Below, in pieces: positions 5,142 to 59,713 of a stretch of DNA of 64,000 nt. The translations under genes and the position numbers were made by a program. This stretch comes from a virus. Below the pieces are notes generated by a model. That model searched no databases and was not told the DNA's origin. It was given only the letters and a program-made list of their open reading frames with translations. The DNA lies in the IMG/VR virus record IMGVR_UViG_3300047301_000191; one strand, 5' to 3'. Position 1 is the stretch's first letter. Each line of letters opens with the position of its first letter.

Positions 5142-5168
5142 AAGCAAAACCACCGCGACCGGATCCAA
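5142..5168 (+). promoter_or_regulatory. Recurrent intergenic motif copy 1 (aaGCAAAACC-N10-GATCCA), degenerate
   Basis: AAAACC and GATCC half-sites with exact 10-nt GC-rich spacer, 31 nt upstream of ATG 5199. Confidence 0.35.
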
Positions 5169-5198
5169 CCGGCGCCGACAGCGCAGAGGGAATCGATT

Positions 5199-5504
5199 AT
5201 GAAATGGCACATTGTCAATAAAGACTCTGATGAAAATCGAGAGCTTAATCTAAGGGTCAATGGCAGAAATGTTGCCACAGTGTGGCGCACTGGCACTTGG
5301 CATACATGGGACCACGATGGCTGCGGAGGAGAAAACTCTCGCGAAACTTTTGACCAGTTCATTGAGTGGCCATTTGGTTCAGGAGTTCAAGAGAAGATTA
5401 GAGACAGTGATCCTGATGTGCCAAAGGCAATGGCTGAAGCTGAGGCATCAGTAATCAGGCAAGGCTTTGATCGGCCGCGAGTAAAGATTAAGAAAGAAAA
5501 ATAG
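5199..5504 (+). CDS. Hypothetical protein
   Basis: ATG downstream of motif copy 1, in frame within ORF 5118..5504. Confidence 0.45.
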   Translation: MKWHIVNKDSDENRELNLRVNGRNVATVWRTGTWHTWDHDGCGGENSRETFDQFIEWPFGSGVQEKIRDSDPDVPKAMAEAEASVIRQGFDRPRVKIKKEK

Positions 5505-5518
5505 TTGTAAGATATTTT

Positions 5519-5594
5519 GCGGGAGTAGCTCAGTTGATAGAGCGCTTTCTTTCCACGTAAGAGGTCGCGGGTTTGAATCCCGTCTTCCGCTCCA
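5519..5594 (+). tRNA. tRNA-Gly (anticodon UCC)
   Basis: 76-nt cloverleaf: acceptor GCGGGAG/CTTCCGC, D-arm GCTC-AGTTGATA-GAGC, anticodon loop TTTCCAC, T-arm GCGGG-TTTGAAT-CCCGT, encoded CCA. Confidence 0.75.
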
Positions 5595-5636
5595 CCTTAC
5601 AAAAAACAAAAAACAATTCTCTCCCAAGTGGGAAAC

Positions 5637-5855
5637 ATGGGAACGGTATTTATCGTCATCGGTTTTGTTGCTAGTGTTCCAATTGGAGTTGTTCTAGAAC
5701 ATCTATTCTTGAAAGCCAAGAACGGTTGCTCTGCAACCAACTTGGACGGAGACACCTGTCGAGGGTCGCGCAGCAAGGTATGTGTTGATAATCTTTGCGC
5801 AGAGCATTGCAAAACAATCCACGGTGGTAAATGCGTGGAAATTCTAAGGAGCTAA
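5637..5855 (+). CDS. Small membrane protein with Cys-rich C-terminus
   Basis: TM helix VFIVIGFVASVPIGVVL; six Cys in the last 40 aa; alternative GTG at 5628. Confidence 0.4.
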   Translation: MGTVFIVIGFVASVPIGVVLEHLFLKAKNGCSATNLDGDTCRGSRSKVCVDNLCAEHCKTIHGGKCVEILRS

Positions 5856-5857
5856 TT

Positions 5858-6682
5858 TTGAATAAGTTTTTGTCCGGTGTTCTTTTCGCTATGGTTGCCG
5901 CGGTGACATCCATGGCGACTGGCTGTGGTTATTCAATTGTCGACCCTGGCAATCGAGGTGTCGTAGTTGATTGGGGCAACGTAAAGGAGCCAGCACTTTC
6001 AGAAGGCTTTCACTTCTATTGCGTTTTTCCTGGATGCCATATGACTGAAGTATCTGTTCGACAGCAGCGGCAAGAGATTGAAGCCGCATGCTCAACCTCT
6101 GATATGCAAGAGGTGATCTTGAAGGTTGCGATTCTTTATCGCATCCCCGAAAGCTCTGTCACGAAGGTCTTTCGAGACTATCATGGTGAGCCATTTGAAA
6201 GCTTGATTCTTTCGCAAGCTCAAGAGTCAATCAAGGATGCCACCACCACTCGCTCGGCGGAACTTGTTGTCAAGCAACGTCTTGCTGTGAAGACCGAAGC
6301 TCTTGCGTCACTCCGCAAGAATGTTGGAGATATCATTGTCATTGAAGATCTGATTGTCACCGATGTTGTTCTTAGCAAGATGCTGACTGCGTCAATTGAA
6401 TCAAAGATGGTTCAGGAGCAAGAGGCCGAGAAGGCCAAGTTCACGAAGCAGAAAGCTGAAATTGATACGGAAATGGCGGTAGCTGTTGCACAGGGTGAGG
6501 CAACCGCGACCCTTGCCCGAGCAGGGGCAGAGGCAGAGAGTATCCGTATTCGTGGTAAGGCCCTTAGCGAAAACCCCAGCGTCATCCAGCTTCAGCTTGT
6601 TGAACGCTGGAATGGTGTCAGCCCTCAAGTTGTCACTGGCGGTGGTGGGTTGAATATTGTACTGCCTGCATTGAAGCAGTGA
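5858..6682 (+). CDS. SPFH/band-7 (prohibitin/HflC-like) lipoprotein
   Basis: TTG start 7 nt after AAGGAG; signal peptide + lipobox MATGC; SPFH core SIVDPGNRGVVVDWGNV; C-terminal coiled coil. Confidence 0.75.
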   Translation: MNKFLSGVLFAMVAAVTSMATGCGYSIVDPGNRGVVVDWGNVKEPALSEGFHFYCVFPGCHMTEVSVRQQRQEIEAACSTSDMQEVILKVAILYRIPESSVTKVFRDYHGEPFESLILSQAQESIKDATTTRSAELVVKQRLAVKTEALASLRKNVGDIIVIEDLIVTDVVLSKMLTASIESKMVQEQEAEKAKFTKQKAEIDTEMAVAVAQGEATATLARAGAEAESIRIRGKALSENPSVIQLQLVERWNGVSPQVVTGGGGLNIVLPALKQ

Positions 6683-6692
6683 CAGTTTAGCG

Positions 6693-6729
6693 AGCAGGCC
6701 GTTAGGAATACAATTCTTCGCGGCCTGCT
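6693..6729 (+). terminator. Stem-loop (agcaggccg / cggcctgct, 19-nt loop), possible terminator or RNA structure
   Basis: 9-bp perfect inverted repeat 11 nt after the SPFH stop; no T-run. Confidence 0.3.
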
Positions 6730-6758: not shown

Positions 6759-6842
6759 GCTGGAATCCCATAGTGGTCAATTGGACAATACTTGTAATAT
6801 TGCGCGCAAGCTTCGTGGGTTCGAATCCCACTTCCAGCTCCA
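6759..6842 (+). tRNA. tRNA-Thr (anticodon UGU), 84 nt with extended variable region
   Basis: Acceptor GCTGGAA/TTCCAGC; perfect anticodon stem CAATA/TATTG, loop CTTGTAA; T-arm GTGGG-TTCGAAT-CCCAC; encoded CCA. Confidence 0.6.
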
Positions 6843-8095: not shown

Positions 8096-8806
8096 TCATT
8101 GAGCAATCGTGGCAATCTTCTGAAGCCTGCCATTAGACATGAAGCGAGCACTAATGCTGGCAGCCAAAGCCTCTCTGTGATTTGAAATGTCGGAATCCTT
8201 AGGCAGAGTAATTGCATTCGCATGAAGTTTACGATGACAGTTTGAGCATAGAATGATGCACTTTGTTACTTCTGCAAGCAATGCAGGCACTCCAATCTCA
8301 GCTGCCATTTTTGATATAGAGCCCTCCTTATCATCATCCGTATGATGGAAGTCGAGGCACGCCGAAAATGTCTCTTTACATAAAAAGCATCCAACATCAG
8401 ATTTTGCTAAATATATTTTTTCACGTAGTAGTTTTGCTCGTGCCCTGCTTTTGGCAAAATAATATTGCTTGTTGGCAAGGTAATGTTCTTTTGACCTATG
8501 GTTGCTGCACTCTCGACAGAAGACATGAAAACCTTTTCCTTTTTTGTTGAAAAGAGAAACATCTTTTGTCACTTCGCATTCTGCACATGTTCGCACATTT
8601 GTTTCATCTGACTTGCTCCGCTTTATCTTCAGACGGTCCATTTTGAAATGAGTAGTGTCAACCTTGAGTCGCATCCTATAGTTGTGAAATAAACGGTAGT
8701 AGCTTTTGTTGGCTGGTGAACCTAGTCCCAAGACGACATCTTTTATTGCTTCAGATTTTGCAACCATGTCGATATAACTCTTATCATCCCATTTCATAAG
8801 CTTCAT
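8096..8806 (-). CDS. HNH homing endonuclease with Zn-finger region (free-standing, opposite strand)
   Basis: CAECEV...CRECSNH Zn cluster and C-terminal HNH core CIILCSNCHRKLH; only - strand gene in this stretch. Confidence 0.7.
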   Translation of the reverse strand: MKLMKWDDKSYIDMVAKSEAIKDVVLGLGSPANKSYYRLFHNYRMRLKVDTTHFKMDRLKIKRSKSDETNVRTCAECEVTKDVSLFNKKGKGFHVFCRECSNHRSKEHYLANKQYYFAKSRARAKLLREKIYLAKSDVGCFLCKETFSACLDFHHTDDDKEGSISKMAAEIGVPALLAEVTKCIILCSNCHRKLHANAITLPKDSDISNHREALAASISARFMSNGRLQKIATIAQ

Positions 8807-9105: not shown

Positions 9106-9108
9106 GAT

Positions 9109-9523: not shown

Positions 9524-9898
9524 ATGAATCTGCAAACATGGGAAGAAGTCCAGAGATTGACTTCAGAGTATGGTCCACCAAGATTCGTTTCAAAAAAATA
9601 CGTTAGGTTCCAAACGGGCGAGAGATACGCAGAGATCAGATTTTTCGATCATGGTGTGATTGGAAACATAATGCTCGGCTACATTAAATCCAATGGCAAA
9701 GAAATAACTCATTGTGATAGTGGTCCATCATTTACGGAGTTCTATCCAGATGGTGCGCTTTACTGCCGCCATTATCATCACAATGGTTTGACGCATCGCA
9801 CTGATGGACCAGCGATTGAGAAGTTTGAAAAAAATGGACATTGTCGCTATAAGGCGTATTACATAGATGGCGTCGAGAAGTCAGTCACCCGAGACTAA
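9524..9898 (+). CDS. MORN-variant repeat protein (family member 1)
   Basis: N-term MNLQTWEEVQRLTSEYGPP; repeats HRTDGPAIEKFEKNG...YKAYYIDG. Confidence 0.7.
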   Translation: MNLQTWEEVQRLTSEYGPPRFVSKKYVRFQTGERYAEIRFFDHGVIGNIMLGYIKSNGKEITHCDSGPSFTEFYPDGALYCRHYHHNGLTHRTDGPAIEKFEKNGHCRYKAYYIDGVEKSVTRD

Positions 9899-9910: not shown

Positions 9911-10249
9911 ATGAACCGACTAGGACGATTGCCCCATTTCATTGAAATGGAGTCTGCCATCTTTGTTAAACCAAAAGCCTGCATGGAGTTGGGCCGTCTA
10001 GAGATTTCCTACAAAGTCCTACCCGGTGCAGCAGAAATGCTAAATACAATTGGAGCAGACACGCTGAGTTTGATCGGGACAACTCAGCGATACATGCGCA
10101 TCCTAAATCTAGAAGCGTACGATCAATTCAATTGCCAGGAGCACGACGATGATAGACTCGTTGTCGATCTTGCTGTAACGGCTTCCCATTTGCAAACCCA
10201 AAAAGACAAGATCAACGAAGAGCTTGCCAAAAAGAAAAAGAAAATCTAA
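9911..10249 (+). CDS. Hypothetical protein
   Basis: ORF, + strand. Confidence 0.45.
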   Translation: MNRLGRLPHFIEMESAIFVKPKACMELGRLEISYKVLPGAAEMLNTIGADTLSLIGTTQRYMRILNLEAYDQFNCQEHDDDRLVVDLAVTASHLQTQKDKINEELAKKKKKI

Positions 10250-10975: not shown

Positions 10976-11199
10976 ACGTAGCCTTGTATTGGCACTGTCT
11001 TCAGTGTGGCGACCACGAGCCCATCAAGCTAACAGGAGACATAGAAGAATATGGGATAGGTGATAGAGAGAAGTGTATCACATGCGGAGATGGAATAGCT
11101 CATGTGGTAACGCTCGACATTGCCGCAAGATATGAGCAAGGGCGAGCGTTAGGTATGAGTATTGTTGATGCCTGGGATTGGGCCCATGAAATTAAATGA
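10972..11199 (+). CDS. Zn-ribbon protein (CxxC...CxxC)
   Basis: HCLQCGDHE...CITCGDG motifs; ATGA overlap with the upstream stop. Confidence 0.5.
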   Translation: MNVALYWHCLQCGDHEPIKLTGDIEEYGIGDREKCITCGDGIAHVVTLDIAARYEQGRALGMSIVDAWDWAHEIK

Positions 11200-11647
11200 G
11201 TGGGAGGTAATGCAGACAGATATTCTGTTGTATGGCAAACCCGAAAACAGCGAAGGTATTTTTACATACGATACCTCTTCTGTCTTAGGGCCGGGCTCAA
11301 AAATGGAGATGCAGTTCTTCAAAAGCACTGGCACAATTAATTACCGCGAATACCGAAAAGATAGAAAGCAACATCGAATCGATGGACCATCCAGAGAATT
11401 CTTCTATTCGTGTGGAGCGAAAGAATTCGAATCGTGGTTTTTAAATGGGATAAAACATCGTGATGATGGTCCAGCAACGCGATCTTTCTATGAGAGCGGA
11501 AAGATTGAAAAAGAATTGTACATTGTCAATGGGAAGCTTCATCGCATTGGTGGCCCGGCCGATCTAACGTTTTCGGAATCTGGAAGAATAATATACAGTG
11601 AATACTGGTTTGAGGGAACATTTTACCCAAAGAGAGAAAAGAAATGA
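11186..11647 (+). CDS. MORN-variant repeat protein (family member 2)
   Basis: Internal ATG gives MKLNEWEV N-term; repeats HRIDGPSREF, HRDDGPATRSFYESG, HRIGGPADLTFSESG. Confidence 0.65.
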   Translation: MKLNEWEVMQTDILLYGKPENSEGIFTYDTSSVLGPGSKMEMQFFKSTGTINYREYRKDRKQHRIDGPSREFFYSCGAKEFESWFLNGIKHRDDGPATRSFYESGKIEKELYIVNGKLHRIGGPADLTFSESGRIIYSEYWFEGTFYPKREKK

Positions 11648-12069
11648 AATCAAACCGTTGGTGGATTCGCGGCTGCTCCTTGCGTGTGCTTAAACGATAT
11701 TTGCCAAAGAGTAAGTTTAGGCTCTCATATGCCGACATGAAGACCTCCTCGCTTGTTTTTTGGGATGGTTGCGCCTTTCGCATTTCTGATTGGGAGGACA
11801 TGCTCAATGAAGTGCGCGCGCTAAAACCAGGAGATCGAATCTTTAATCCCTATCGTAAGACATGGCAAACAATTACCGAGATTAAATTTGTATGGGATAC
11901 TGGTTCGCATCCGGCTTCTCGCAAAAAGCTTTCCCGCATTTTTGATTTGGTTAGTCGCTACCAATATATTGGTGGCTTCATCATTTGTGACGACACCCAT
12001 GCCTGTATCTACGATACGCCATCAGACATGGCGTACAGATACTCAGACTATCACCAGCCCATTCGCTAA
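11644..12069 (+). CDS. Hypothetical protein
   Basis: ORF, ATGA overlap. Confidence 0.4.
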   Translation: MKSNRWWIRGCSLRVLKRYLPKSKFRLSYADMKTSSLVFWDGCAFRISDWEDMLNEVRALKPGDRIFNPYRKTWQTITEIKFVWDTGSHPASRKKLSRIFDLVSRYQYIGGFIICDDTHACIYDTPSDMAYRYSDYHQPIR

Positions 12070-12079
12070 AGGAAAACAA

Positions 12080-13240
12080 ATGCGAAAACTTGCTTCAATC
12101 CAAAAGATCGTCAACATCTTCCCCATTCCAAATGCAGACCTGCTTGTTCTTGCGCAGGTAAACGATTGGCTTTCTATTGTGAAGAAGGGTGAGTTCCAGG
12201 TTGGCGAGCTTGTCGTCTACTGCGAAATTGATTCCGTTCTTCCAGAAATCCCTGCGTTTGAATTCATGAGGCAGCGAGATTATCGAGTCAATACAATTAA
12301 GCTGCGCGGCACACTGAGCCAAGGCCTCATTGTCGGTACATCGGTTCTGCCCGAAGGTACCGCGATTATTGAAGACTTTGATGTCAGCAGTATTCTTGGA
12401 GTCGTTAAGCCTATCCCTGGAAAGTCTCGCAAAGGAACACGGCAGCCTAATCGTCAAGGTCGACGGAGCAACTTCCCAAACTTCATTAAGAAAACTGACG
12501 AGACTCGTATTCAGTCCAAGTCATCTGTGCTTGATGAGCTGGAAGGTGTAGAGGTTTATGCTGCCGTCAAAATGGATGGTCAGTCATTGACGTTCGCAAA
12601 CTACGCAGCAAAAGAAGAAGATAATCCGTTTATTGTTTGCTCGCGCAACTTCAAGAAGGACCGAACGATTATCGTCAAGAGCCGAGACGAAAATGTTCCT
12701 GACCGGGAAGAGATCGACACTCATTGGCAAATCGCAGACCGACTAAAGATCTTTGAAAATCTTCCGTATGGTTTTGCAATGCAGGGAGAGTACCTTTCCG
12801 ACAAAATTCAAGGCAATCACCTAGGTGTAAAAGAGCCGGAATGGCACTGTTTTCAAGTGTTTGATATTGTGAGTCAAAAGTATCTGGACTACGCGAACTT
12901 CGTTCAGTTTTGTTTGACGATGAATATCAAGACAGTTCCAATTGAAAGAGTTTGGAAATTCTGTAAGCAAGAGTTCATAGATCTTCACGCAAAAACCTAT
13001 CCTGACTCCCTTTGTCAATCTGCAGTTGGCGGTCTGTTGCAGTTTGCAAGAGGCCGGTACAGCTCAGGCTTTCCGCGAGAAGGTCTAGTGATTCGCCCAA
13101 CTACAGAGCAATATAGCGAGTCTCTTAAAGGAAGGGCTTCATTCAAAGTCATTAATAATGACTTTCTACTGAAAGTAAAAGGCAAAGAAGATATTTATGA
13201 CGAGGATGGAGACGACGAACAGACTATAACTTCTGATTGA
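12080..13240 (+). CDS. ATP-dependent RNA ligase-family nucleotidyltransferase (KxDG motif I; Rnl2/DraRnl-like with N-terminal OB-like domain)
   Basis: ATG after AAAGGAAAA RBS; motif I AVKMDGQSL; ligase-like downstream motifs. Confidence 0.6.
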   Translation: MRKLASIQKIVNIFPIPNADLLVLAQVNDWLSIVKKGEFQVGELVVYCEIDSVLPEIPAFEFMRQRDYRVNTIKLRGTLSQGLIVGTSVLPEGTAIIEDFDVSSILGVVKPIPGKSRKGTRQPNRQGRRSNFPNFIKKTDETRIQSKSSVLDELEGVEVYAAVKMDGQSLTFANYAAKEEDNPFIVCSRNFKKDRTIIVKSRDENVPDREEIDTHWQIADRLKIFENLPYGFAMQGEYLSDKIQGNHLGVKEPEWHCFQVFDIVSQKYLDYANFVQFCLTMNIKTVPIERVWKFCKQEFIDLHAKTYPDSLCQSAVGGLLQFARGRYSSGFPREGLVIRPTTEQYSESLKGRASFKVINNDFLLKVKGKEDIYDEDGDDEQTITSD

Positions 13241-14070
13241 ACTACCTCCAATTTCCAGCCGATGACATTTAGCGATGCCTCTGTGGATTGATTGCCTTTT
13301 GAGTTTTTCAACAATGGTACCGTTATACCTGCATATCTTAATAATTTCGTGCGTGAAAGGTTTTTATCTTTGCAAAATTTGGCTAGCCCGTCATCTACAA
13401 AGAAGGTCTCTCCACTCGGCGAAGTCAGACAAAATCTTTTTGTGCCAGGATGATTTTTGCCAGAGCGCTTGTTAGGTGACTTCTTAATCGCATGCGACAA
13501 GGCCGCTCTTTTTTCTATCGTCCATTCGATTGGAGTTGCTTTCATCCTGGCGGTCATCCTTTGTCGGCACCCCTCTCTCTGTTCTGCTGAAAAAGTTTTG
13601 TTTTGATTGGCGGCACTAATTATGGCCTTTGCCTCTGGGGTATGCTTTCTGCCCCACATCCCATTGTCTTTTCCTTTCCTTGAGAGAAATGTTCGTGAGT
13701 TTTTACGAAAAAACTCTACATCTCTACTTTTCATAATAAAGCTATGCTGCATTTTGGTTCTACATTTGAACATGGCATAGTACGCCTGTATGATCTTTCT
13801 ATTTTGTGGAAGGATATAACAGAGAATTCTATGTGCGATTAAATGTTCGCGAGCAGTAAGTAAAACAATATTGAGTGTATCTTTAATTTGACAACTGTCG
13901 GTACACATTGATCTGGGTAAGATATGATGTTTTTCATAATAATCTCCATCTTGCTGGAGTGATTGTCGCAGAATTTGTTCATTCGCTCCTCGTTGAATGA
14001 TATTTTTATACCATGTGAAGTGTTTTTTGGACACAGCATTTTGTTGAATTATCAAGAGATAGTTGGTCAT
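13195..14070 (-). CDS. HNH homing endonuclease with NUMOD3-like DNA-binding motifs (free-standing)
   Basis: EKHHILPRS...NIVLLTAREHLIAH HNH core; GKDNGMWGRKHTPEAKAIIS NUMOD3-like; 3' end overlaps the RNA ligase 3' end convergently. Confidence 0.75.
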   Translation of the reverse strand: MTNYLLIIQQNAVSKKHFTWYKNIIQRGANEQILRQSLQQDGDYYEKHHILPRSMCTDSCQIKDTLNIVLLTAREHLIAHRILCYILPQNRKIIQAYYAMFKCRTKMQHSFIMKSRDVEFFRKNSRTFLSRKGKDNGMWGRKHTPEAKAIISAANQNKTFSAEQREGCRQRMTARMKATPIEWTIEKRAALSHAIKKSPNKRSGKNHPGTKRFCLTSPSGETFFVDDGLAKFCKDKNLSRTKLLRYAGITVPLLKNSKGNQSTEASLNVIGWKLEVVQSEVIVCSSSPSSS

Positions 14071-14110: not shown

Positions 14111-14138
14111 CCAGCAAAACCGCGTCGGCCCGATCCAG
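14111..14138 (+). promoter_or_regulatory. Recurrent intergenic motif copy 2 (CCAGCAAAACC-N10-GATCCAG)
   Basis: Exact core, 13 nt upstream of ATG 14152. Confidence 0.45.
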
Positions 14139-14151: not shown

Positions 14152-14544
14152 ATGAAGCTTGACGTATGGGAGCAGGTACGAGATCTTACCATCCAGTTTG
14201 GCAAGCCTGCATTTGTCTCCAATGTAATTCATTTTGTCAATTCTGATGAGGCTAGCGCAAGTATTTTTCTTCACGGCAATGGAAGCGTTTGGGTAATTCA
14301 ATACACGAAAGGCAGCCATCCTTTCCAGTTCCATCGTAAAGATGCTCCTGCCGTCATAGAGTACTACGAGGATGGCCAGATAGCTGGAGAGTTTTGGCAC
14401 ATAAATAATCGACGTCATCGAGCAGATGGCCCTGCTGCCATATACTTTAACAAAGACGGCAGCATATCGTACAAAGAATACTGGATTGACGGAAAAAGAA
14501 AAGGAGACTCAAATGATCAAAGATCACCTCATTGTAATGGCTAA
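14152..14544 (+). CDS. MORN-variant repeat protein (family member 3)
   Basis: N-term MKLDVWEQVRDLTIQFGKP; repeats HRKDAPAVIEYYEDG, HRADGPAAIYFNKDG. Confidence 0.7.
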   Translation: MKLDVWEQVRDLTIQFGKPAFVSNVIHFVNSDEASASIFLHGNGSVWVIQYTKGSHPFQFHRKDAPAVIEYYEDGQIAGEFWHINNRRHRADGPAAIYFNKDGSISYKEYWIDGKRKGDSNDQRSPHCNG

Positions 14545-19442: not shown

Positions 19443-19475
19443 AGACAGGCCTTCAATGAGGGCCTGTCTTCATTT
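19443..19475 (+). terminator. Rho-independent terminator (agacaggcc-loop-ggcctgtct)
   Basis: 9-bp perfect stem 3 nt after stop 19440, followed by TCATTT. Confidence 0.5.
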
Positions 19476-19483
19476 AAGGCAAA

Positions 19484-19867: not shown

Positions 19868-20320
19868 TTGAAATTAGATGACTATGAGATTCTAAAAGTA
19901 GCAATTAACATTGCGCCAGAAGGCTCTACATTTTTAAGCCAATTTGATTTTGAGGATACGGACTATCAACACCCAAGCTGGCGCATTACCAAGGGAAAAG
20001 AAGTTAGATTCTCTGTCAAGCAAAAGATTAACATTTCAATAGGCATTGATGGCGTGAATCAATATGTAAGAAGAACTCAACTCCTACGTCGACATAAGAA
20101 TGGCAACAACATAGTACATAAAGCATACTATCAAAATTCTTTTGGCAAGTGTCTTGTTGTTGACAGCAATGGTTATAGCACTCCAATTAAACGATCAGAG
20201 TTCCAAGACGTTCTTGAAGGTAGATATATTTTTGTCAAGAACATACTTTGCCCCTTGCCATTGTCAGCAAAACCGCCGCCGCCGGATCCAAGCGGCGTTA
20301 CATTGCCTCGGCAACAATAA
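19868..20320 (+). CDS. Hypothetical protein (N-term MKLDDYEIL); C-terminus overlaps motif copy 3
   Basis: TTG start after AAGGGGA RBS. Confidence 0.45.
   Translation: MKLDDYEILKVAINIAPEGSTFLSQFDFEDTDYQHPSWRITKGKEVRFSVKQKINISIGIDGVNQYVRRTQLLRRHKNGNNIVHKAYYQNSFGKCLVVDSNGYSTPIKRSEFQDVLEGRYIFVKNILCPLPLSAKPPPPDPSGVTLPRQQ
20265..20290 (+). promoter_or_regulatory. Recurrent motif copy 3 (CAGCAAAACC-N10-GATCCA), inside the 3' end of the upstream CDS
   Basis: Exact half-sites and 10-nt spacer gccgccgccg. Confidence 0.4.
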
Positions 20321-20442
20321 AGGGAATACCATGTCTAGCCCTATCTCTAATCCCGCTTTGGTGACTTCGCGTTACCGGCGGTGGGTTCTACCTAGCTGAC
20401 CGCATCGCTAGGAAGAACTGCAATCATTATCAGCATCAGGTA

Positions 20443-20862
20443 GTGGCGTTGGCGGTCAGCTCTGGCTGCCCTGTCGACTATGGTGTCAATTCAATCAGGT
20501 ACTCTCGCCAGCAGGCTTACTGTGGAACATCTGTTCATGCAGAAGTTGACTTGGTTAAGAGCCTAGGTGCTCGCGCCAAGAACGCAAAGATTTTTGTATA
20601 CCGTTTCAATTCCAGAGACACTAATGAATGTCGCGAGCCTCACTCCAGCATTCCCTGCAACCTTTGTCAGCACGCATTGAAAGAAGCTGGCATCAGCAGA
20701 GTCTACAGTCTCAATGAAGAGGGGGCGCTGGTTACGATGAAAAAGTCTGATCTTAATTCTTTTTCAGTGGATCCATTTTTGCTTTCTGCAAACATAGCAA
20801 AGGACAATCGTATGCTAACAAGTCAACTCAATAGACATCTGGTATTTGCCAATGGAACTTGA
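20443..20862 (+). CDS. Cytidine/deoxycytidylate deaminase-fold protein (zinc-binding HAE...PCxxC)
   Basis: GTG start; SVHAEVDLV and PCNLCQHAL motifs with 29-residue spacing. Confidence 0.6.
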   Translation: MALAVSSGCPVDYGVNSIRYSRQQAYCGTSVHAEVDLVKSLGARAKNAKIFVYRFNSRDTNECREPHSSIPCNLCQHALKEAGISRVYSLNEEGALVTMKKSDLNSFSVDPFLLSANIAKDNRMLTSQLNRHLVFANGT

Positions 20863-21246: not shown

Positions 21247-22398
21247 ATGACCTCCATGTACGATGACCTTTCCAATCTCATTGCCAATAACCGTCATGTT
21301 GAAACCCTTGAAGCCGTAGGAGTGGCCTGCAAGCAGTCAGGATCATTCCTGATTTTTGACTATGAGATTACTGCCAACTGGGATTCTCCCTTTCCTTTTA
21401 TCTGCCGTGGTTTGGTCGCCGACCAATCAGGTAAGATTGTTTGCGCTCCAATGAGGAAGTTTTGGAACGCGGGGGAAAGCAAGGCTGATAAGATCGATTG
21501 GTCAAAGGCCTTGGCATTTGAGAAGATGGACGGTTCAATGGTGAACCGTTGGTTTGCAAACGGCGAGTGGCATGTCTCCACCAGGTATAATCTGGGAGAA
21601 GGTCTTAACTCAAGGATGTCGGATATCCATTCAATTGAATGGCGCCAGCTCATCGATAAGTGTTTGGAAACGGTTGACCTTACTCTGCAGCCCCCTGAAG
21701 AAACTTGGACCTATGAGATCTGCTCTCAGTACAACCGAGTTGTCGTCAAGTATCAAAAGCCATTTGCGGTATTGCTTAGCCGCCGAGTGACCGCCACAGG
21801 CCAAGAAATCCCAATCACTGGAATGGCTGACGCCTGCCGGACCCACGACCTTTCCAACCTTGAGGCTGCACAGTCTTATGTCGGTGGATTTGATGGCGGG
21901 GAATTTGAAGGAGTCGTCGTCTATGACGGCGAGAACCGAATCAAGATTAAGAATCCTTCTTATGTCTGGTGGCATCACATCCGTGGAGAGGTAGGCGCAA
22001 CTTGGAAGAATATGCTTTCTGTTTACTTCAAGGATGAAGACAGTGAGTTCGTATCCCAGTTCCCCGACTTTGGAAAGCACTTTCAGGTCATTGACTATTT
22101 CTTCAAAGAACAAATGTCTGGTGCAGAAACCCTGTGGGATTCAATCAAGATTGCTCCTACTCGCAAAGAGTTTGCTGCGCTGGTAGAAGCGACCGGCACT
22201 TCAATGAAGGGTTGGCTTTTCAAGCGGTATGGTGGTGGAACTGACTTGAGTGCCGAGCAGTTTGTTCGTTCGCTGGATGAACCAACGAGGAACCGTTGGG
22301 CAGAAAATGCTGGACTCAAGGGCCGACTTGAGAAGATTGGTTCACTTGCCAAGTGGGGAGAAGATGCCCCAGAGACCCCCACCATGGAGGAGGAATGA
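21247..22398 (+). CDS. ATP-dependent RNA ligase, Rnl1-like
   Basis: Motif I EKMDGSM (KxDGS), motif IV FEGVVVY, motif V IKIKN; 383 aa. Confidence 0.7.
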   Translation: MTSMYDDLSNLIANNRHVETLEAVGVACKQSGSFLIFDYEITANWDSPFPFICRGLVADQSGKIVCAPMRKFWNAGESKADKIDWSKALAFEKMDGSMVNRWFANGEWHVSTRYNLGEGLNSRMSDIHSIEWRQLIDKCLETVDLTLQPPEETWTYEICSQYNRVVVKYQKPFAVLLSRRVTATGQEIPITGMADACRTHDLSNLEAAQSYVGGFDGGEFEGVVVYDGENRIKIKNPSYVWWHHIRGEVGATWKNMLSVYFKDEDSEFVSQFPDFGKHFQVIDYFFKEQMSGAETLWDSIKIAPTRKEFAALVEATGTSMKGWLFKRYGGGTDLSAEQFVRSLDEPTRNRWAENAGLKGRLEKIGSLAKWGEDAPETPTMEEE

Positions 22399-23226: not shown

Positions 23227-23232
23227 GCTGAA

Positions 23233-24311: not shown

Positions 24312-24353
24312 TCTGTCGCAGGCTCGACACTCGGTCTCAGATACGGAGTAACT

Positions 24354-24674: not shown

Positions 24675-24687
24675 CAAAGGATAATTT

Positions 24688-25026: not shown

Positions 25027-25052
25027 CAGCAAAACCACCGCCGCCAGATCCC
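25027..25052 (+). promoter_or_regulatory. Recurrent motif copy 4 (CAGCAAAACC-N10-GATCCC)
   Basis: Starts the nucleotide after stop 25026; 27 nt upstream of ATG 25080. Confidence 0.45.
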
Positions 25053-31114: not shown

Positions 31115-31140
31115 CAGCAAAACCGATCTGAGCAGATCCC
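31115..31140 (+). promoter_or_regulatory. Recurrent motif copy 5 (TTGACAGCAAAACC-N10-GATCCC)
   Basis: Immediately follows the stop of the upstream gene; includes a perfect TTGACA. Confidence 0.45.
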
Positions 31141-37293: not shown

Positions 37294-37319
37294 CAGCAAA
37301 ACCTCGGCCAGCAGATCCT
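37294..37319 (+). promoter_or_regulatory. Recurrent motif copy 6 (TTGCCAGCAAAACC-N10-GATCCT)
   Basis: 26 nt upstream of ATG 37346. Confidence 0.45.
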
Positions 37320-40778: not shown

Positions 40779-40804
40779 CAGCAAAACCGCGCCGCCACGA
40801 TCCA
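40779..40804 (+). promoter_or_regulatory. Recurrent motif copy 7 (CTGCCAGCAAAACC-N10-GATCCA)
   Basis: 20 nt upstream of ATG 40825. Confidence 0.45.
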
Positions 40805-46847: not shown

Positions 46848-47122
46848 CAGTGGAGGGTACCTTGACTAAGCTGATAGATAATGCCATTGAGCCTGCTAAG
46901 CTATTTGTTGGTCAGAAAATCAAGTTAGTTTGTCCATATTTATCTACAGTATTTCGTCACAATGACGGCACAATGGTTGCCACTGTGACCGACATATTTT
47001 GTGTCGACGATGTTGCCTGGCAAATTTCCTTAAAGAGCAACACATCGTACTTCCGTTGGGATTCCCGCCGTGACGGTGGGGTCTTTTTTCTATTGAATGA
47101 AAGAAAATATGAAGGCATCTAA
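46844..47122 (+). CDS. Hypothetical protein
   Basis: GTGA overlap. Confidence 0.35.
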   Translation: MTVEGTLTKLIDNAIEPAKLFVGQKIKLVCPYLSTVFRHNDGTMVATVTDIFCVDDVAWQISLKSNTSYFRWDSRRDGGVFFLLNERKYEGI

Positions 47123-48422: not shown

Positions 48423-48448
48423 CAGCAAAACCGCTGGCGCAAGATCCA
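48423..48448 (+). promoter_or_regulatory. Recurrent motif copy 8 (TTACCAGCAAAACC-N10-GATCCA)
   Basis: 8 nt after stop 48415; 38 nt upstream of ATG 48487. Confidence 0.45.
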
Positions 48449-48748: not shown

Positions 48749-49288
48749 ATGAACATCTTTGCGAGAATTCTTTTCATTCCACTCAACTTATTGTTGCTGC
48801 TTGTTGACAAGATTGTCTTTCCATTCCTGCAATCCAAACCACACTTTTGGCAAGTGACCGCTAAGAAGAATCAAATCTACCTAGAGATAGAGAGAAACCA
48901 TTTCCTGTTTTCTCGTCTTTTTGATGAAGATGTATTTTCTCCTGTTGCCCGGCAGGAACTACTGTCTGCCTCTAAGGCCGCAAACCAAACGGCGGCAGTA
49001 CTCCATCTTTACTCTGCGTATGCGGCTCTCTCGGAATTTGCAAGGAATTGCGAAGCTGCAGGATTTGAGCTTAACGCACAGTGGATTGAAAGACTTAACT
49101 CCGCCAATCAACACCTCTTTGAGCGAGTATTGGCCAAGTTTTCAAAGTATGATCAAACTCTAATTTACCATAATTTGCCCAGACTTTATTCTGCCACTTC
49201 ACGAGCGATTCATCGCACAGAATTCAGTGGCGTAGTTACCGTAGGGAATACCGATGAGCTTGACACATTCCAACTCACTGCAGAATAA
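48749..49288 (+). CDS. Hypothetical protein with N-terminal TM helix
   Basis: ATG after GAGGAATACA RBS. Confidence 0.45.
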   Translation: MNIFARILFIPLNLLLLLVDKIVFPFLQSKPHFWQVTAKKNQIYLEIERNHFLFSRLFDEDVFSPVARQELLSASKAANQTAAVLHLYSAYAALSEFARNCEAAGFELNAQWIERLNSANQHLFERVLAKFSKYDQTLIYHNLPRLYSATSRAIHRTEFSGVVTVGNTDELDTFQLTAE

Positions 49289-53730: not shown

Positions 53731-53757
53731 CAGCAAAACCGCCGGCGGCGGATCCAG
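53731..53757 (+). promoter_or_regulatory. Recurrent motif copy 9 (CTGCCAGCAAAACC-GCCGGCGGCG-GATCCAG; palindromic spacer)
   Basis: 14 nt after stop 53717; 35 nt upstream of ATG 53793. Confidence 0.45.
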
Positions 53758-53792: not shown

Positions 53793-54170
53793 ATGAATCT
53801 GAATCAATGGGAAGTGATCGCTGAATTAGCTGAACAATACTCTTCCCCTAAGATTACTCATGGATCCTTCGTCTTTCTTAAAGAAGAAAAATCAGCGATT
53901 GTCTGTTTTTATGAGTGTGGTCAAATCAAATCTTGTACCTACTCCAACAGAGTAGGTTATCATCGCCCCCATCAGGAAGGCCCTGCAAATCAGATTTTCT
54001 ATAGGGATGGAAATATCAGCTGCACCCAGTACTTCTTAGATGGACTACTTTATCGGCCACCTCATTTGGGGCCTGCCTATAAGAGTCTATATCAGGATGG
54101 ACGAGTTTTGCTCGCAGAGTACTGGCAGTATGGGAAGAAGTTCGCGCCTCTACAATCGGCGCCACTCTAA
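53793..54170 (+). CDS. MORN-variant repeat protein
   Basis: N-term MNLNQWEVIAELAEQYSSP; repeats YHRPHQEGPANQIFYRDG, YRPPHLGPAYKSLYQDG. Confidence 0.7.
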   Translation: MNLNQWEVIAELAEQYSSPKITHGSFVFLKEEKSAIVCFYECGQIKSCTYSNRVGYHRPHQEGPANQIFYRDGNISCTQYFLDGLLYRPPHLGPAYKSLYQDGRVLLAEYWQYGKKFAPLQSAPL

Positions 54171-54183
54171 GTGGGGGGTGACT

Positions 54184-54594
54184 GTGAATATCGATAGTTG
54201 GCAAAAGATACGAGAGCTTACTGAAAAGTACGGACCTCCCAAAAGTGACGGGCGAAAGGGAAACGGATTAACATTCGAGAAATCAAACACTAGCGTTTGG
54301 GTGGGCCTTCGTCCATCTGGTTCGATTTCATATATCGAGTACAGTGAATCAAGTAGCGAACACTCTATTTTAATGCTTTCCAGACCACATCTAGATGGAC
54401 CTGCTGTAGAATCATTCCATGACAATGGCAAAGTCCATTGCAGATACCATTACAAAAGTTCGTTGCTGCACAGGCCTACTGATCTAGGACCAGCCTACGT
54501 AAACTACGGTTATGATGGGGCGCTCATGGGATGTTCATACTATCATATGGGAATTTCGCAGCAAAAAGTGGATGCAATTAGCCTAAGGAGTTGA
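54184..54594 (+). CDS. MORN-variant repeat protein
   Basis: GTG start; N-term VNIDSWQKIRELTEKYGPP; repeats SRPHLDGPAVESFHDNG, HRPTDLGPAYVNYGYDG. Confidence 0.65.
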   Translation: MNIDSWQKIRELTEKYGPPKSDGRKGNGLTFEKSNTSVWVGLRPSGSISYIEYSESSSEHSILMLSRPHLDGPAVESFHDNGKVHCRYHYKSSLLHRPTDLGPAYVNYGYDGALMGCSYYHMGISQQKVDAISLRS

Positions 54595-56462: not shown

Positions 56463-56851
56463 ACTTGGATGCGACCGCAAGAATCCTGTCAACAGGCCTT
56501 TGGGTTAAGTCAAAAGAAAAGCCACCAAGCCCAGTGTCACAGTGGTGGGATGATATTGCTGAGCGTCGATACCGGCTAAATATCGTGAATTTCCAAACAG
56601 TTTACATTGTCTCTGTGTCGGATATGAGGGCTGAAGATTTTTGGCGGGGCGAAGGCAGACTGTTTTACGTCGCATTTGATAATGAAGCCCAGAGTGCCGA
56701 GGATGCTCTATTTGTAAACCTAAAGGAGGATGCTCTACTTGTAAACCTAAAGAGTTCCTTCGATGAAGCCACTGTTCTAGCCGCCTACAATCGTTTCATT
56801 CCCAGTGACTTGCGTGAATACGCACCATTTTGTGACAAGAGGAAAGTATGA
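56459..56851 (+). CDS. Hypothetical protein containing a 27-nt tandem duplication
   Basis: ATGA overlap on both sides (operon with phosphoesterase and Thg1-like gene). Confidence 0.45.
   Translation: MNLDATARILSTGLWVKSKEKPPSPVSQWWDDIAERRYRLNIVNFQTVYIVSVSDMRAEDFWRGEGRLFYVAFDNEAQSAEDALFVNLKEDALLVNLKSSFDEATVLAAYNRFIPSDLREYAPFCDKRKV
56699..56752 (+). repeat. 27-bp direct tandem duplication (gaggatgctctaYttgtaaacctaaag x2), in-frame (EDALFVNLK EDALLVNLK)
   Basis: Two adjacent copies differing at one position. Confidence 0.8.
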
Positions 56852-57708
56852 CGACAACCACCACAGAAGCAACTGCGCGCCTGCCTTCTCTTGAAGAACA
56901 ATTCCAAGAATTGGAGCGACTTGAAGACCAGCGCATTCCGTCCTCTCAAGGTTTCATCACCAGGCTTGATGGTCGAGGTTTCTCAAAGCTAACGCAGAAA
57001 CTTGATAAGCCATTCGATTCCGACTTCAATCGAGCAATGAGGGCTGCGGCAGTATCTTTGTTTGTAGACTTTAACCCGCTGCTCATCCACACAGGCAGTG
57101 ACGAAATTTCTGCATACTTTCCTGCTCAAAAAGGAGAAACAGGGGAACACCCATTTAATGGAAGGATTCAAAAGATTCTTTCGGTTGTAGCTGGCGTCGT
57201 TTCCACTGCCTTTAATCAAGTCACATCGAGCCAAGAGTTTAAGGCAAAGCTGACTGATCGTGCAGTATTTGATGCACGAATCGTAAAGGTTACTCCCGAG
57301 TTGGCTGCTGCGTATTTTGTTTGGCGAGAGCAAAACACAAAGAGAAATTCTGTTCAAATGGCTTGTCGCACCGTTATGTCGCACAAGGCAATGAATGGGC
57401 TGAATCAAACGCAGCAGTTTCTTGCGCTTCAAGAATACGGCATTGATTGGAACAATTATGACCGCATGAATAAGCGCGGAATCTTGCTACAAAAGCAATC
57501 CAATCAGCTTCGGCTCACAGCACAAGATATCTCACAATTGCCCGAGAGGCATGATCTGCGCGTGGCGGCAAGTTCATCAGAGGGTGGCGACGTTGTCATT
57601 GTTCGCAACGAAGTTGTGGAGCTTGACTTGCCCCCATTGGCTTCAGTTGCAAATCTGTATGAATGCCTTTTTGAGAAGGCAATCCCGGAGCTAAAAGATG
57701 ACAAATGA
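56848..57708 (+). CDS. Thg1-like protein (tRNA-His guanylyltransferase family, 3'-5' nucleotide-addition/tRNA 5'-end repair enzyme)
   Basis: FITRLDGRGFSKLT, TGSDEISAYFP, FNGRIQKILSVVAGVVSTAFN, VFDARIV, YFVWREQNTKRNSVQMACRTV, EYGIDWNNYDRMNKRGILL align with conserved Thg1 blocks. Confidence 0.8.
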   Translation: MTTTTTEATARLPSLEEQFQELERLEDQRIPSSQGFITRLDGRGFSKLTQKLDKPFDSDFNRAMRAAAVSLFVDFNPLLIHTGSDEISAYFPAQKGETGEHPFNGRIQKILSVVAGVVSTAFNQVTSSQEFKAKLTDRAVFDARIVKVTPELAAAYFVWREQNTKRNSVQMACRTVMSHKAMNGLNQTQQFLALQEYGIDWNNYDRMNKRGILLQKQSNQLRLTAQDISQLPERHDLRVAASSSEGGDVVIVRNEVVELDLPPLASVANLYECLFEKAIPELKDDK

Positions 57709-57889
57709 TAATGAAGTTTCGGTTTACTGTGAGCTATTGAAGTATCTCTCTACTCATTCGATTGGCGATGCGGCAGAGGCACTTGGTGTAACTAGCGACA
57801 CAATTGCTCTTTGGCTCAGGCGAGATGCAAGGACCCCTGCATGTATTGCTAGCGCAGTAATTCAGGTTCTTGCGCTCAGGAATTCCTAA
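57698..57889 (+). CDS. Small HTH DNA-binding protein (putative regulator)
   Basis: IGDAAEALGVTSDTIALWLRRD helix-turn-helix; overlaps the Thg1-like stop. Confidence 0.45.
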   Translation: MTNDNEVSVYCELLKYLSTHSIGDAAEALGVTSDTIALWLRRDARTPACIASAVIQVLALRNS

Positions 57890-57890
57890 T

Positions 57891-58286
57891 ATGCAAATTG
57901 ATGAATGGGAATGGATTTCAGCGGTTGCGATAGCAAATAAAAATCTATGCAGAGAGTCCATTCTTGACATGGGAGAGACGCTTGGAATTCGATTTGTTAT
58001 GCCAAGATTTACCAATAGTATTCTGAAGTCAAGCACTCCATATATCTTTATAGAATACGATTATGAATCGGGAAAACATATCCCAAACAAACACATACTT
58101 AATTCCCGCATTCACGCGGGTACGAATGGCCTGCGCGCACTTGAATTACAAACAGTCATTCATCTGGGCAAAACACTTCATATGTGCATTCACGATATAC
58201 ATTTCCATGAGACTATCGTTGGATATCAGGAAGAAAAATATTGGAAGATATCGGGAAGCTGGAATGTGTTTGCGCCAGAACACTGA
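57891..58286 (+). CDS. Hypothetical protein (N-term MQIDEWEWISAV)
   Basis: Internal ATG of ORF 57870. Confidence 0.4.
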   Translation: MQIDEWEWISAVAIANKNLCRESILDMGETLGIRFVMPRFTNSILKSSTPYIFIEYDYESGKHIPNKHILNSRIHAGTNGLRALELQTVIHLGKTLHMCIHDIHFHETIVGYQEEKYWKISGSWNVFAPEH

Positions 58287-58294
58287 GGGATTAA

Positions 58295-58741
58295 ATGCAA
58301 CTAGACTCGTTCACAGAAATCATTCTTTCTCTAAACAAACCAGTCCAGATTTCATCTGATACTTTTTGGGATAAAGATCGTCTCTATCGGTTTGATAGTG
58401 ACCTTCACAACCTTGCCGACAAGCCAACCGCAGAATCATTCTGCAAGTATATGTCCGTAGAAAATAGATTAAGTCAAAAAAATGAAGAAATCGCCATATC
58501 GGAAGAAAGTCTAAACGGCATCAAGTGGCGATGCTTCTACTGGCGAAGAAATCAAATCTATCGCCGAGATGATTGGACAAGCGTTAAATCAGTGTTCTTA
58601 AGGTTGGCTGGAGATTCTTATGGATTCCTCGGTGAGGAAAAATCACATGTTGACTATTCGTTGCCGAAGCTTCAGCTTGAAGACTTGGGCATCTTTTCAG
58701 AAGAAGTGGTGCTGAAGTTTTTTGGAGATAATATTGAATAA
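58295..58741 (+). CDS. Tandem paralog family E, member 1
   Basis: N-term MQLDSFTEIILSLNKPVQIS; shared YW..NQIYR and GIFSE motifs. Confidence 0.5.
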   Translation: MQLDSFTEIILSLNKPVQISSDTFWDKDRLYRFDSDLHNLADKPTAESFCKYMSVENRLSQKNEEIAISEESLNGIKWRCFYWRRNQIYRRDDWTSVKSVFLRLAGDSYGFLGEEKSHVDYSLPKLQLEDLGIFSEEVVLKFFGDNIE

Positions 58742-58792
58742 TAACCTCATGGTTGAGGCAAGCGGGTTGAAGGTCGTACGCCGGAGGATTGA

Positions 58793-59209
58793 TTGGAATT
58801 AGATATATTTACGGAAGTTATTCTTTCGCTAAACGATCCTCGCGAAATCAGCCGCGAGCAATTCTGGAGCGTTCGTCGTCAAGAATTCGATGGAGATCTT
58901 CGCATGTTACTTGGTGAACCAGACTGCACCGTGAAGTACTTAACGGTGGACAATTTGATTACAGGACAAAAAGAAGATATCGCAATCGCACATGAGGGAA
59001 ATAACGGGGACTGCCTTTACTGGCAACAAAATCAAATCTATAGGTCGGCCGAAAGAGTGCCGGTAACTTACTTCAAGGCTTCTGGTGTCCGTTATGGGCG
59101 GCTAATGCTTGGCGGATTCAGGAATGAAAAAGCACTCTCTGTAGAAAGCCCTGGTATATTTTCCGAATACATCGCGCAGAAATACATTAGGATCAGCCGT
59201 GAAACTTGA
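58793..59209 (+). CDS. Tandem paralog family E, member 2
   Basis: TTG start; N-term MELDIFTEVILSLNDPREIS; YWQQNQIYR; GIFSEYI. Confidence 0.5.
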   Translation: MELDIFTEVILSLNDPREISREQFWSVRRQEFDGDLRMLLGEPDCTVKYLTVDNLITGQKEDIAIAHEGNNGDCLYWQQNQIYRSAERVPVTYFKASGVRYGRLMLGGFRNEKALSVESPGIFSEYIAQKYIRISRET

Positions 59210-59663
59210 TTTTATGAGCGAGTTGCTCGCAGCAATAAACGATCCTATTATCGTCGGAGAAGAGGATTTTCATCGAGACTCTCCTGCCTGTATGTATTTT
59301 CACACAAGTTACTACGACGCGGTCGATTATCGCTGTCCAATCACATACTACTCTGTATGGAATGCCTTTAAGTCCTGCAGAGAGATTTGCGCACAAGCCA
59401 TTGAGATGTCGTCGAGGGTTACAGCCATGTCGAGAACTGTGTCGGGGAAAGAAACCACGTTTTATTGGCAGAACGAAAAGATATACTATAACTTCATAAT
59501 AGACGAATTTTGCATCAGCTGTGATTCTCATGATTTTGGCAACGAGCCGAAATTCTTTAATCCGCGAGACACAAATGACACTAAGTATGAACTTACAAAA
59601 GATCAAGCGGGAATCTTTTCAGAAAACTTCTATCTGAAACACTTTTTAATCTTAAGCAATTAG
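59199..59663 (+). CDS. Tandem paralog family E, member 3
   Basis: GTG start; N-term VKLDFMSELLAAINDPIIV; YWQNEKIYY; GIFSENF. Confidence 0.45.
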   Translation: MKLDFMSELLAAINDPIIVGEEDFHRDSPACMYFHTSYYDAVDYRCPITYYSVWNAFKSCREICAQAIEMSSRVTAMSRTVSGKETTFYWQNEKIYYNFIIDEFCISCDSHDFGNEPKFFNPRDTNDTKYELTKDQAGIFSENFYLKHFLILSN

Positions 59664-59686
59664 CCCTGACTGGCCCTTGGCCTTGC

Positions 59687-59713
59687 CAGCAAAACCGCCG
59701 CCGACGGATCCAG
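59687..59713 (+). promoter_or_regulatory. Recurrent motif copy 10 (TTGCCAGCAAAACC-N10-GATCCAG followed by an inverted repeat of the spacer)
   Basis: 24 nt after stop 59663; spacer GCCGCCGACG is complemented by downstream CCGTCGGCGGC. Confidence 0.45.

Follow-up and report, generated by a model that had tools for sequence, protein, structure and literature searches.

The 64,000-nt stretch of viral DNA considered here (IMG/VR record IMGVR_UViG_3300047301_000191, part of a larger phage genome and referred to below as the window) carries a short bipartite motif at one gene junction after another, which raises the question of what this element does and what might read it. The initial annotation had described ten copies upstream of start codons, each consisting of two half-sites separated by 10 nt, and this description held. 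The 25-base pattern CAGCAAAACC-N10-GATCC had nine exact matches in the window, all on the plus strand, against 0.00 expected from dinucleotide-preserving shuffles of the window, which served as the chance expectation. The tenth copy, at 5142, reads AAGCAAAACC and differs from CAGCAAAACC by a single mismatch in the first base, so that the half-sites, contrary to what had been stated, are not strictly invariant. The explanation that we favour, at about even confidence and from sequence comparison, is that the motif is the promoter, or the promoter core, of one class of transcription units (operons of small genes), specific to this phage lineage and read by a putative factor.

A tolerance of three mismatches added just two matches, both on the minus strand, where 2.1 are expected by chance. 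Because these extras were at chance level, the motif is all-or-none, without degenerate copies in the window. The 10-mer CAGCAAAACC was the most over-represented 10-mer of the window and was absent outside the motif copies on both strands. A relaxed-core match within a gene end at 10194-10214 (+), AAACCC-N10-GATCA, whose spacer is AT-rich, was judged to be a chance occurrence and not a true copy. The spacer was 10 nt long in all ten copies and, as the initial annotation had noted for a genome otherwise richer in A+T, it was variable and GC-rich (82% G+C versus approximately 45% in the window); it was loosely semi-conserved, with a consensus near GCCGCCGCCG. In the upstream flank, only a T at −3 and a G at −2 were conserved, within a weak GCCTTGC. 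The statement that most copies are preceded by a −35-like TTGCCA or TTGACA was too strong, as the exact hexamers were found before four of the ten. The base following GATCC was A in seven copies and C in two, as had been described, and T in the remaining one. The count of GATC in the window (235 versus 244 expected) indicated neither depletion nor enrichment, and a connection with Dam methylation was dropped.

Gene coordinates were derived from our own simple tilings of open reading frames (ORFs) and, for the relatives' loci, from pipeline calls, and do not represent a curated annotation. The window contains approximately 125 tightly packed ORFs, mostly small and nearly all on the plus strand, and the junctions other than those with the motif are mostly overlaps or gaps shorter than 45 nt. 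Neighbouring motif copies are 3.5-9.0 kb apart. Every copy was located at a gene junction, beginning 0-41 nt after the upstream stop codon or, at 20265, overlapping the upstream ORF. The distance from the motif end to the next start codon was 15-42 nt in all ten copies, and this start was mostly equipped with a Shine-Dalgarno sequence.

No relative was found among deposited phage genomes (50,697 records searched by megablast and tblastn), the best protein identities being 23-39%; the window comes from an uncultivated lineage of huge phages. A closer relative was reached through two window proteins; it is represented by lake-metagenome contigs of 42.7 and 155.7 kb (the latter being SRR407182_6510, 155,736 bp; loci L244, L245, L250 and L251) and, together with the window, is called clade 1. 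Its proteins were 47-83% identical to those of the window (VWA 83%, MoxR 74%, ClpA 67%, Rnl1 61% and Thg1 47%). The motif occurred six times in the 42 kb read, all on the plus strand and with the 10-nt spacing, and ended 17-58 nt before start codons. Four of these copies were exact, one had CGGC for CAGC and one had GATCT for GATCC, and their spacers differed from those of the window. Four of the six were found at positions matching the window, namely between the OmpA and Rnl1 genes, before ClpA, before the homolog of 48749-49288, and between Thg1 and MoxR. Over the 16 clade-1 copies from the two genomes, the upstream ORF contained the motif in its last codons in five cases.

A search of IMG/VR based on Rnl1 did not identify a relative, and the loci of three ClpA homologs (P0003, P0008 and P0021) and one Thg1 homolog (P0126) were bacterial and lacked the motif. 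A 20-base version of the motif had no match in IMG/VR. Loose patterns (15-18 specified bases) run against IMG/VR and a metagenome collection gave single chance matches among those listed, none at a window-related locus. The strict clade-1 pattern, which fits just six of the 16 clade-1 copies, had 49 scattered single matches in 185,579 species-representative bacterial and archaeal genomes and never more than one per genome; therefore, no bacterial genome in this set carries the strict form repeatedly. A search of the literature for the 10-mer turned up only unrelated primer sequences.

More distant relatives (clade 2) were reached in IMG/VR via the conserved VWA protein (70% identity). Their G+C content is 51%, and they include a 371,675-bp contig, IMGVR_UViG_3300035212_003113; the loci read were L254, L255 and L257-L269. 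The clade-1 motif was absent from their sequence. They carry a diverged version of equal layout, (G)GGCCT-AAA(G/C)CC-N10-GATCC-(T/C)GA, and the core common to both clades is AAANCC-N10-GATCC. Across the whole of IMG/VR, the strict clade-2 pattern was matched in three contigs only, all mutually related, with 16 strict matches on one strand of the 371,675-bp contig and none on the other. We collected 35 clade-2 copies, all in a single orientation, and most of them were followed within 20-60 nt by a start codon with a ribosome-binding site. The clade-2 element is approximately 55 nt long and consists of TGAYAGG, about five variable nt, GCCGGGCCTAAAGCCGG, four variable nt and then CGCCCGATCCTGAAGGNCGAACC; conservation extends 15 nt past GATCC, to within approximately 20 nt of the ribosome-binding site. 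It holds stop codons in all three frames (at −20/−17, −1 and +21 relative to AAA), each of which is used by upstream ORFs, and at least 12 of the 35 copies supply the stop of the upstream ORF from within, as the TAA in CCTAAAG or the TGA after GATCC.

Orthologous genes of the two clades were led by their own clade's version of the motif (L250_19300 and L267_12545; L250_1232 and c3_L266_3938), and several further ortholog pairs within clade 2 were likewise preceded by it. Sequence and position of the motif are conserved in relatives, and this comparison shows that the motif has co-evolved with the phage clade. No copy on the opposite strand was present in the window, in the relatives or in the whole 371-kb contig, and no copy was found deep inside a gene in the window or in the relatives read, some overlapping the last codons of the upstream ORF; the refutation test proposed with the initial annotation thus turned out in favour of the motif. 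A selfish repeat of the miniature inverted-repeat transposable element (MITE) or repetitive extragenic palindrome (REP) type was rejected, as 51 of 51 copies (16 in clade 1 and 35 in clade 2), as well as the 16 strict matches of the 371-kb contig, had one orientation; the motif has no inverted termini and stands in a fixed relation to start codons.

The copies running into gene ends brought up the question of whether the conserved feature is a peptide, that is, a proline-rich (A/L)-K-P-x-x-x-D-P at C-termini or reached via stop-codon read-through. Four of the five upstream ORFs that run through a clade-1 motif do so in the same frame, the upstream stop was in that frame in 20 of the 35 clade-2 copies, and third positions in clade 2 had slightly higher entropy (0.61/0.78/1.08), along with GGN and CGN variation. 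Against this stands the lack of any synonymous-type variation of the 10-mer over the 16 clade-1 copies, in two genomes whose proteins are only 47-83% identical, which therefore points to selection on nucleotides, not on a peptide. Moreover, stops in all frames precede most window copies, and the motif stands in varying frames relative to the genes on either side. The periodicity in clade 2 was weak (approximately 1.6 standard errors by a rough estimate, not significant). It is accounted for by the stop-containing TGAYAGG heptamer fixed in the clade-2 element, from which the in-frame stop also follows trivially. Having been examined in all frames, the coding reading was set aside, and we regard it as the least credible of the alternatives.

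The occurrence on the plus strand only, the bounded distance to start codons, the all-or-none character, the retention before orthologs, and the clade-wise change in sequence with the 10-bp spacing kept are the grounds on which we favour a promoter. The exact one-turn spacing and the free, GC-biased spacer fit a protein that would touch two patches on one face of the duplex. The reader would be a sequence-specific factor, for which a phage-encoded RNA polymerase, sigma-like subunit or activator is the most likely candidate, and it would recognise two fixed elements on that face, AAANCC (extended to CAGCAAAACC in the window phage) and GATCC exactly 10 bp downstream. Transcription would start in or just after the motif, giving leaders of 15-60 nt before the gene that opens each block of small, co-directional genes. 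What is inferred in this model is that the event is initiation, where transcription begins and that the reader comes from the phage. The general idea of the initial annotation, a strand-specific signal at transcription-unit boundaries for a phage-specific factor, passed the tests applied and gained support from conservation in relatives; its specific sub-readings fared less well.

Several observations weigh against a promoter. Neither the 126 window ORFs (Pfam and PHROG, with 25 of the 47 matched PHROG families listed) nor the ten large ORFs of the relatives, from partial genomes only, yielded an RNA polymerase, a sigma factor or an obvious transcription factor. A segment of 82% G+C between the fixed elements is an odd place for DNA melting, and the phage promoters known to us are AT-rich in the melting region. 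The conserved clade-2 block of approximately 55 nt is long for a promoter, and the motif fits neither the sigma70 or extracytoplasmic function (ECF) spacing nor the contiguous T7-type layout. The intrinsic terminators of the window were not paired with motif copies. As some genes behind these terminators (MoxR and VWA) lack the motif, one or more other promoter types must exist in the window.

Comparison with known promoters specified these misfits. Sigma70 promoters have a TTGACA-like −35 element and a TATAAT-like −10 element (A at position 2 and T at position 6) at a distance of 17±1 bp. At the motif, the −35-like hexamers stand before 4/10 copies, and the candidate −10, GATCCA, lacks the T at position 6 and is 18 bp away. 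In the copy at 14112, with GATCC(A) taken as the −10, transcription would be predicted to begin within the ribosome-binding site. Sigma70-like sites in a scan of the window were neither enriched nor coincident with the motif, and a sigma70-type promoter was rejected, in line with the earlier remark that the motif is not a sigma70 −10. ECF/sigma-E promoters combine a −35 element containing AAC with a −10 element CGT/GTC about 16-17 bp apart; this type was rejected because AAC and GATC are separated by 11 bp and nothing is conserved 16-17 bp after AAC. The sigma54 layout, compared by eye and by scan, was also rejected.

The nearest likeness was found among phage-specific promoters. In jumbo phages encoding their own RNA polymerases, a conserved motif of approximately 10 nt, phage-specific and located upstream of early operons, proved to be the early promoter (PMC7598289). 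In the phages studied here, the 10-mer is identical in 15 of the 16 clade-1 copies and has a single mismatch in the remaining one, is replaced by GGCCTAAAGCC in clade 2, and is always upstream of gene starts. Like the early promoters of phiKZ, AR9 and phiR1-37, which are served by the virion RNA polymerase, the motif can be found computationally and stands on the coding strand upstream of operons of small, early-type genes. The jumbo-phage promoters differ from phage to phage, and here, too, the sequence of the motif is altered from one clade to the other with its place retained. In contrast, they are AT-rich, single and centred near −10, whereas the 10-mer is 50% A+T with an AAAA core and belongs to a bipartite element with a GC-rich 10-nt gap. 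Jumbo phages of this type encode split beta/beta'-like subunits, none of which was found in the partial sequence scanned here.

Promoters of the T7/T3/SP6 type resemble the motif in occurring as near-identical, all-or-none copies of approximately 23-25 bp on a single strand, at distances of a few kb. In both, some copies lie within the end of the preceding gene, and no terminator is needed upstream. T7-type promoters are conserved contiguously from −17 to +6 and are AT-rich from −4 to −1. The motif, in contrast, has a variable central 10 bp of 82% G+C, on which account a T7-type promoter was rejected by layout, and the partial sequence scanned yielded no gene for a single-subunit polymerase. 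T4 middle promoters, in which sigma appropriation combines a MotA box at −30 with a sigma70 −10 element across a gap of roughly 12 bp, are similarly bipartite, with a 9-10 bp box and a short downstream element about one turn away (10 bp here). Their downstream element is TAnnnT versus GATCC here, a start 7 nt beyond GATCC would land in the ribosome-binding site at the 14112 copy, and no MotA- or AsiA-like genes were identified. The bipartite, GC-cored layout and the sequence match no promoter class compared; in kind, however, a private and strongly conserved motif of the promoter type is found in many large phages.

Alternatively, the motif could be transcribed within a 5' untranslated region or an intercistronic region and act at the RNA level, either bound by a phage protein as a translational operator or cut by an endoribonuclease, and thereby set the expression or stability of the downstream message. 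Position and strand fit this reading as well as they fit a promoter. It is also favoured by the clade-2 conservation reaching to within approximately 20 nt of the ribosome-binding site, by the hairpins that some copies can form, and by the richness of the phage in RNA-handling enzymes (three RNA ligases and PNK-like, RlaP and Thg1 proteins). Folding, however, did not reveal a shared structure. In single-sequence folds, nine of the ten window copies folded no better than shuffles (z from −0.44 to +1.18). The exception was copy 10, with a strong hairpin of −32 kcal/mol (z −4.6); the inverted repeat annotated at this copy and the palindromic spacer of copy 9 are both real. Hairpin-forming window copies were those at 59687, 48423 and 20265, and 6/10 copies lacked a stem.

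The clade-2 copies were examined in the same way. Their G-rich left flank can pair with the C-rich spacer, and folding gave a mean z of −0.97, with about a third of the copies below −1.64. RNAalifold on the 35 copies returned no consensus structure, and the best candidate helix had 62.6% of cells paired versus 61.9% in column shuffles, being matched in 189 of 500 shuffles. Rfam at the gathering score reported tRNAs only and no match to the motif. Taken together, the folds, RNAalifold, pair counts against shuffles, z-scores and Rfam ruled out a conserved or covarying RNA structure (nut/boxB, an RNase III site or an Rfam family), and they show no selected RNA structure at the motif. Lambda-type nut sites and T7 RNase III sites share with the motif a strand-specific intergenic location and a layout in which a variable segment, at times able to form a hairpin, comes after a fixed sequence. 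Nut sites, however, combine boxA with a boxB hairpin, whereas no conserved hairpin or covariation was observed here and the copy number and proximity to start codons are unlike nut; T7 RNase III sites are long double-stranded RNA, which is not present at the motif.

In addition, two unstructured elements kept exactly 10 nt apart are more readily expected in duplex DNA than in RNA, and cutting within the motif would deprive the many upstream ORFs that terminate in it or beyond it of their stop codon. Since cutting or termination at ORF-embedded copies would give messages without a stop codon, both are unlikely, and the motif is probably not a cleavage site. The RNA processing site proposed in the initial annotation is in conflict with these copies and has no support from structure or covariation, and we consider an RNA-level element in general rather unlikely. 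Copies in the last codons of the upstream ORF are tolerable for a promoter, and promoters embedded in gene ends are commonplace.

The same copies bear on another reading, in which the motif would by its sequence terminate or pause transcription of the upstream unit, similar to the hairpin-independent class II signal of T7 RNA polymerase, or would be a terminator on the minus strand, where it reads as a GC-rich stem followed by GGTTTTGCTG. The motif does often begin at or just after the upstream stop codon, and a terminator scan flagged the reverse complement of four of the ten copies. Nevertheless, 5/16 clade-1 copies and many clade-2 copies precede the upstream stop, and the distance to the downstream start is constrained while that to the upstream stop is not. 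An intrinsic terminator was rejected on the plus strand, which has no U-tract, given the six copies without a stem and the copies inside upstream ORFs, and also on the minus strand, where the T-run is just TTTT. Ordinary hairpin-plus-T terminators are present elsewhere in the window (plus strand; 1442-1465, 19448-19480, 38248-38275, 47063-47090, 61190-61225 and 62385-62430). We regard a terminator or pause signal as highly improbable. The six ordinary terminators follow larger or conserved genes, including those for a 465-aa ORF, OmpA and MoxR, and none adjoins a motif copy.

A further alternative, compatible with a promoter, is a recombination or landing site, at which crossover or insertion would add, remove and shuffle small genes, in the manner of the mobile regulatory cassettes of T4-type phages, the promoter-early stem-loop (PeSL) elements. 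Extra small ORFs stood directly behind the motif in one of the two genomes at three of the four orthologous motif positions; these were a 138-aa ORF before ClpA, an 82-aa ORF before the homolog of 48749-49288, and a 119-aa ORF together with a Metallophos gene behind the motif at L244 3671. Four of the approximately 15 members of a paralog family with MORN-like repeats were located directly behind motif copies, versus roughly 1.2 expected, and the stops in three frames of the clade-2 element would close any ORF running in. On the other hand, the inserted genes are not bracketed by two motif copies, no remnant copy is present at the distal junction, and the motif lacks terminal inverted repeats. 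The strict orientation, the fixed distance to start codons and the retention before orthologs across clades point to expression, and gene gain just behind a promoter is expected anyway, since expression is ensured there. A recombination or landing site is, in our view, distinctly unlikely.

According to Arbiol et al. (2010), T4-type PeSLs reportedly consist of a sigma70 early promoter and a stem-loop and flank mobile ORFs on both sides. The motif resembles them as a repeated intergenic regulatory sequence among small ORFs without homologs, with adjacent differences in gene content between relatives. It differs in that a sigma70 promoter and a selected stem-loop are both lacking and each junction has just one copy; of the PeSL-like module suggested earlier, gene-content differences directly behind the motif were seen, whereas the sigma70 early promoter and a consistent stem-loop were not. 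A compound gene-junction module confined to this lineage, which would close incoming frames, restart expression through an unconventional polymerase or factor tolerant of a GC core, and serve as the preferred landing site for new small genes, is likewise improbable; if correct, it would amount to a mobile system of regulatory punctuation whose mechanism differs from those of T4 PeSLs and of all described phage promoter classes.

Read as a lineage-specific promoter, the motif would provide a map of likely transcription-unit starts and an entry point to the transcription programme of an uncultivated lineage of phages of at least 370 kb. The two co-evolved versions may offer a route to the reader, which would be a protein whose DNA-recognition residues differ between the clades together with the motif. 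The motif may also be of use as a lineage marker in metagenomes, given that the strict clade-2 pattern matched only that phage group in IMG/VR. Should the reader be a polymerase that initiates across the GC-rich core, the promoter architecture would be unusual; an ordinary promoter of new specificity would be a useful annotation, not a surprising one.

All ten window copies are on the plus strand. Copy 1 (5142..5166) reads AAGCAAAACC-ACCGCGACCG-GATCC, with the first base mismatched, and ends 32 nt before ATG 5199. Copy 2 (14112..14136, one position later than the 14111 annotated before) has the spacer GCGTCGGCCC and ends 15 nt before ATG 14152, the start of a MORN-like paralog family gene. Copy 3 (20265..20289), with the spacer GCCGCCGCCG, is contained in ORF 19868-20320 at its 3' end, and 41 nt separate it from ATG 20331; in the relative, the copy at L244 3671 occupies the corresponding position. 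Copy 4 (25027..25051; spacer ACCGCCGCCA) directly follows the stop TAG 25024-25026 and ends 28 nt before ATG 25080, the start of the 138-aa gene that precedes the ClpA-like gene, while its counterpart at L244 8708 is directly before ClpA. No homolog of the 138-aa gene was found outside this phage. Copy 5 (31115..31139; spacer GATCTGAGCA) abuts the stop codon TGA 31112-31114 on its 5' side. The start GTG 31163 follows after 23 nt, is equipped with a GAGG ribosome-binding site and opens another gene of the paralog family.

Copy 6 (37294..37318) contains the spacer TCGGCCAGCA and ends 27 nt before ATG 37346. Copy 7 (40779..40803; spacer GCGCCGCCAC) begins 15 nt after the upstream stop, with ATG 40825 coming 21 nt after its end. 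Copy 8 (48423..48447; spacer GCTGGCGCAA) begins 7 nt after the upstream stop and leaves 39 nt to ATG 48487; the corresponding copy, L250 1232, is not followed by the 82-aa ORF that comes next in the window. Copy 9 (53731..53755; spacer GCCGGCGGCG) starts 13 nt downstream of the preceding stop, and 37 nt separate it from ATG 53793, again the start of a paralog-family gene. In copy 10 (59687..59711), the spacer GCCGCCGACG pairs with 59717-59728 as a hairpin of 11-12 bp. This copy ends 42 nt before ATG 59754, and both it and its counterpart at L250 11632 are located between the Thg1 and MoxR genes.

The paralog family comprises approximately 15 small proteins with MORN-like repeats (GPA..Y...G), often with the N-terminus MKL(D/E)x(Y/W)E and without a Pfam match. 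Its ORFs in the window are 9524-9898, 11159-11647, 14152-14544, 23227-24027, 24312-24674, 24685-25026, 25080-25496, 28579-28992, 28908-29372, 31163-31348, 32344-32760, 34510-34923, 53793-54170, 54040-54594 and 59978-60448. The family was expanded in the clade-1 relative too (L250, 17.1-20.4 kb).

The window encodes three RNA ligases, a PNK-like ATPase, RlaP, Thg1, a ClpA-like chaperone, an OmpA-domain protein, a MoxR/VWA pair and three tRNA genes. RNA-repair genes are unusually dense (11888-13240, 21247-22398, 23233-24027, 35856-36893, 38258-39472 and 56848-57708); the set includes one RNA ligase fused to an HNH domain, the RlaP nucleotidyltransferase and the Thg1-like tRNA-His guanylyltransferase. 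The tRNA genes (+) at 5519-5594, 6759-6842 and 31583-31656 correspond to Gly-TCC, Thr-TGT and Ala-TGC, and two of the three are approximately 350-450 nt downstream of the copies at 5142 and 31115. Two tRNAs were also detected in the clade-2 locus L254 (1599-1681 and 1793-1863). The ClpA-like gene (25539-27887) lies in a local G+C bump of 51.5%, and its product is 63-65% identical to ClpA of metagenome-assembled contigs of the Deltaproteobacteria/Myxococcota type (66-70% G+C) and 67% identical to the copy of the phage relative. A host-like bacterium is the probable source of this gene, a weak pointer to the host.

Behind copy 3, the protein-level match between 20331-20862 and L244 4686-5210 begins at 20377, upstream of the first canonical start of its frame (GTG 20443), and overlaps a 22-codon ORF from ATG 20331 in another frame, an arrangement repeated in L244; it may reflect a +1 frameshift, a non-canonical start or an assembly error. 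Isolated minus-strand ORFs were found at 8096-8806, 13195-14070, 39668-40165 and 41173-42117, all without a motif copy. Matches of the HNH, homing-endonuclease and restriction endonuclease types occur among the window ORFs. Finally, a leader distinct from the motif, (T)AACC(A/C)AGGA, was observed a few bases before the ATG of conserved genes in both clades (61228-61257 and 62425-62455 in the window; 6660-6687, 8735-8755 and 9975-10000 in L254; 9270-9288 in L255), and it is probably the extended ribosome-binding region of genes that are probably highly expressed.

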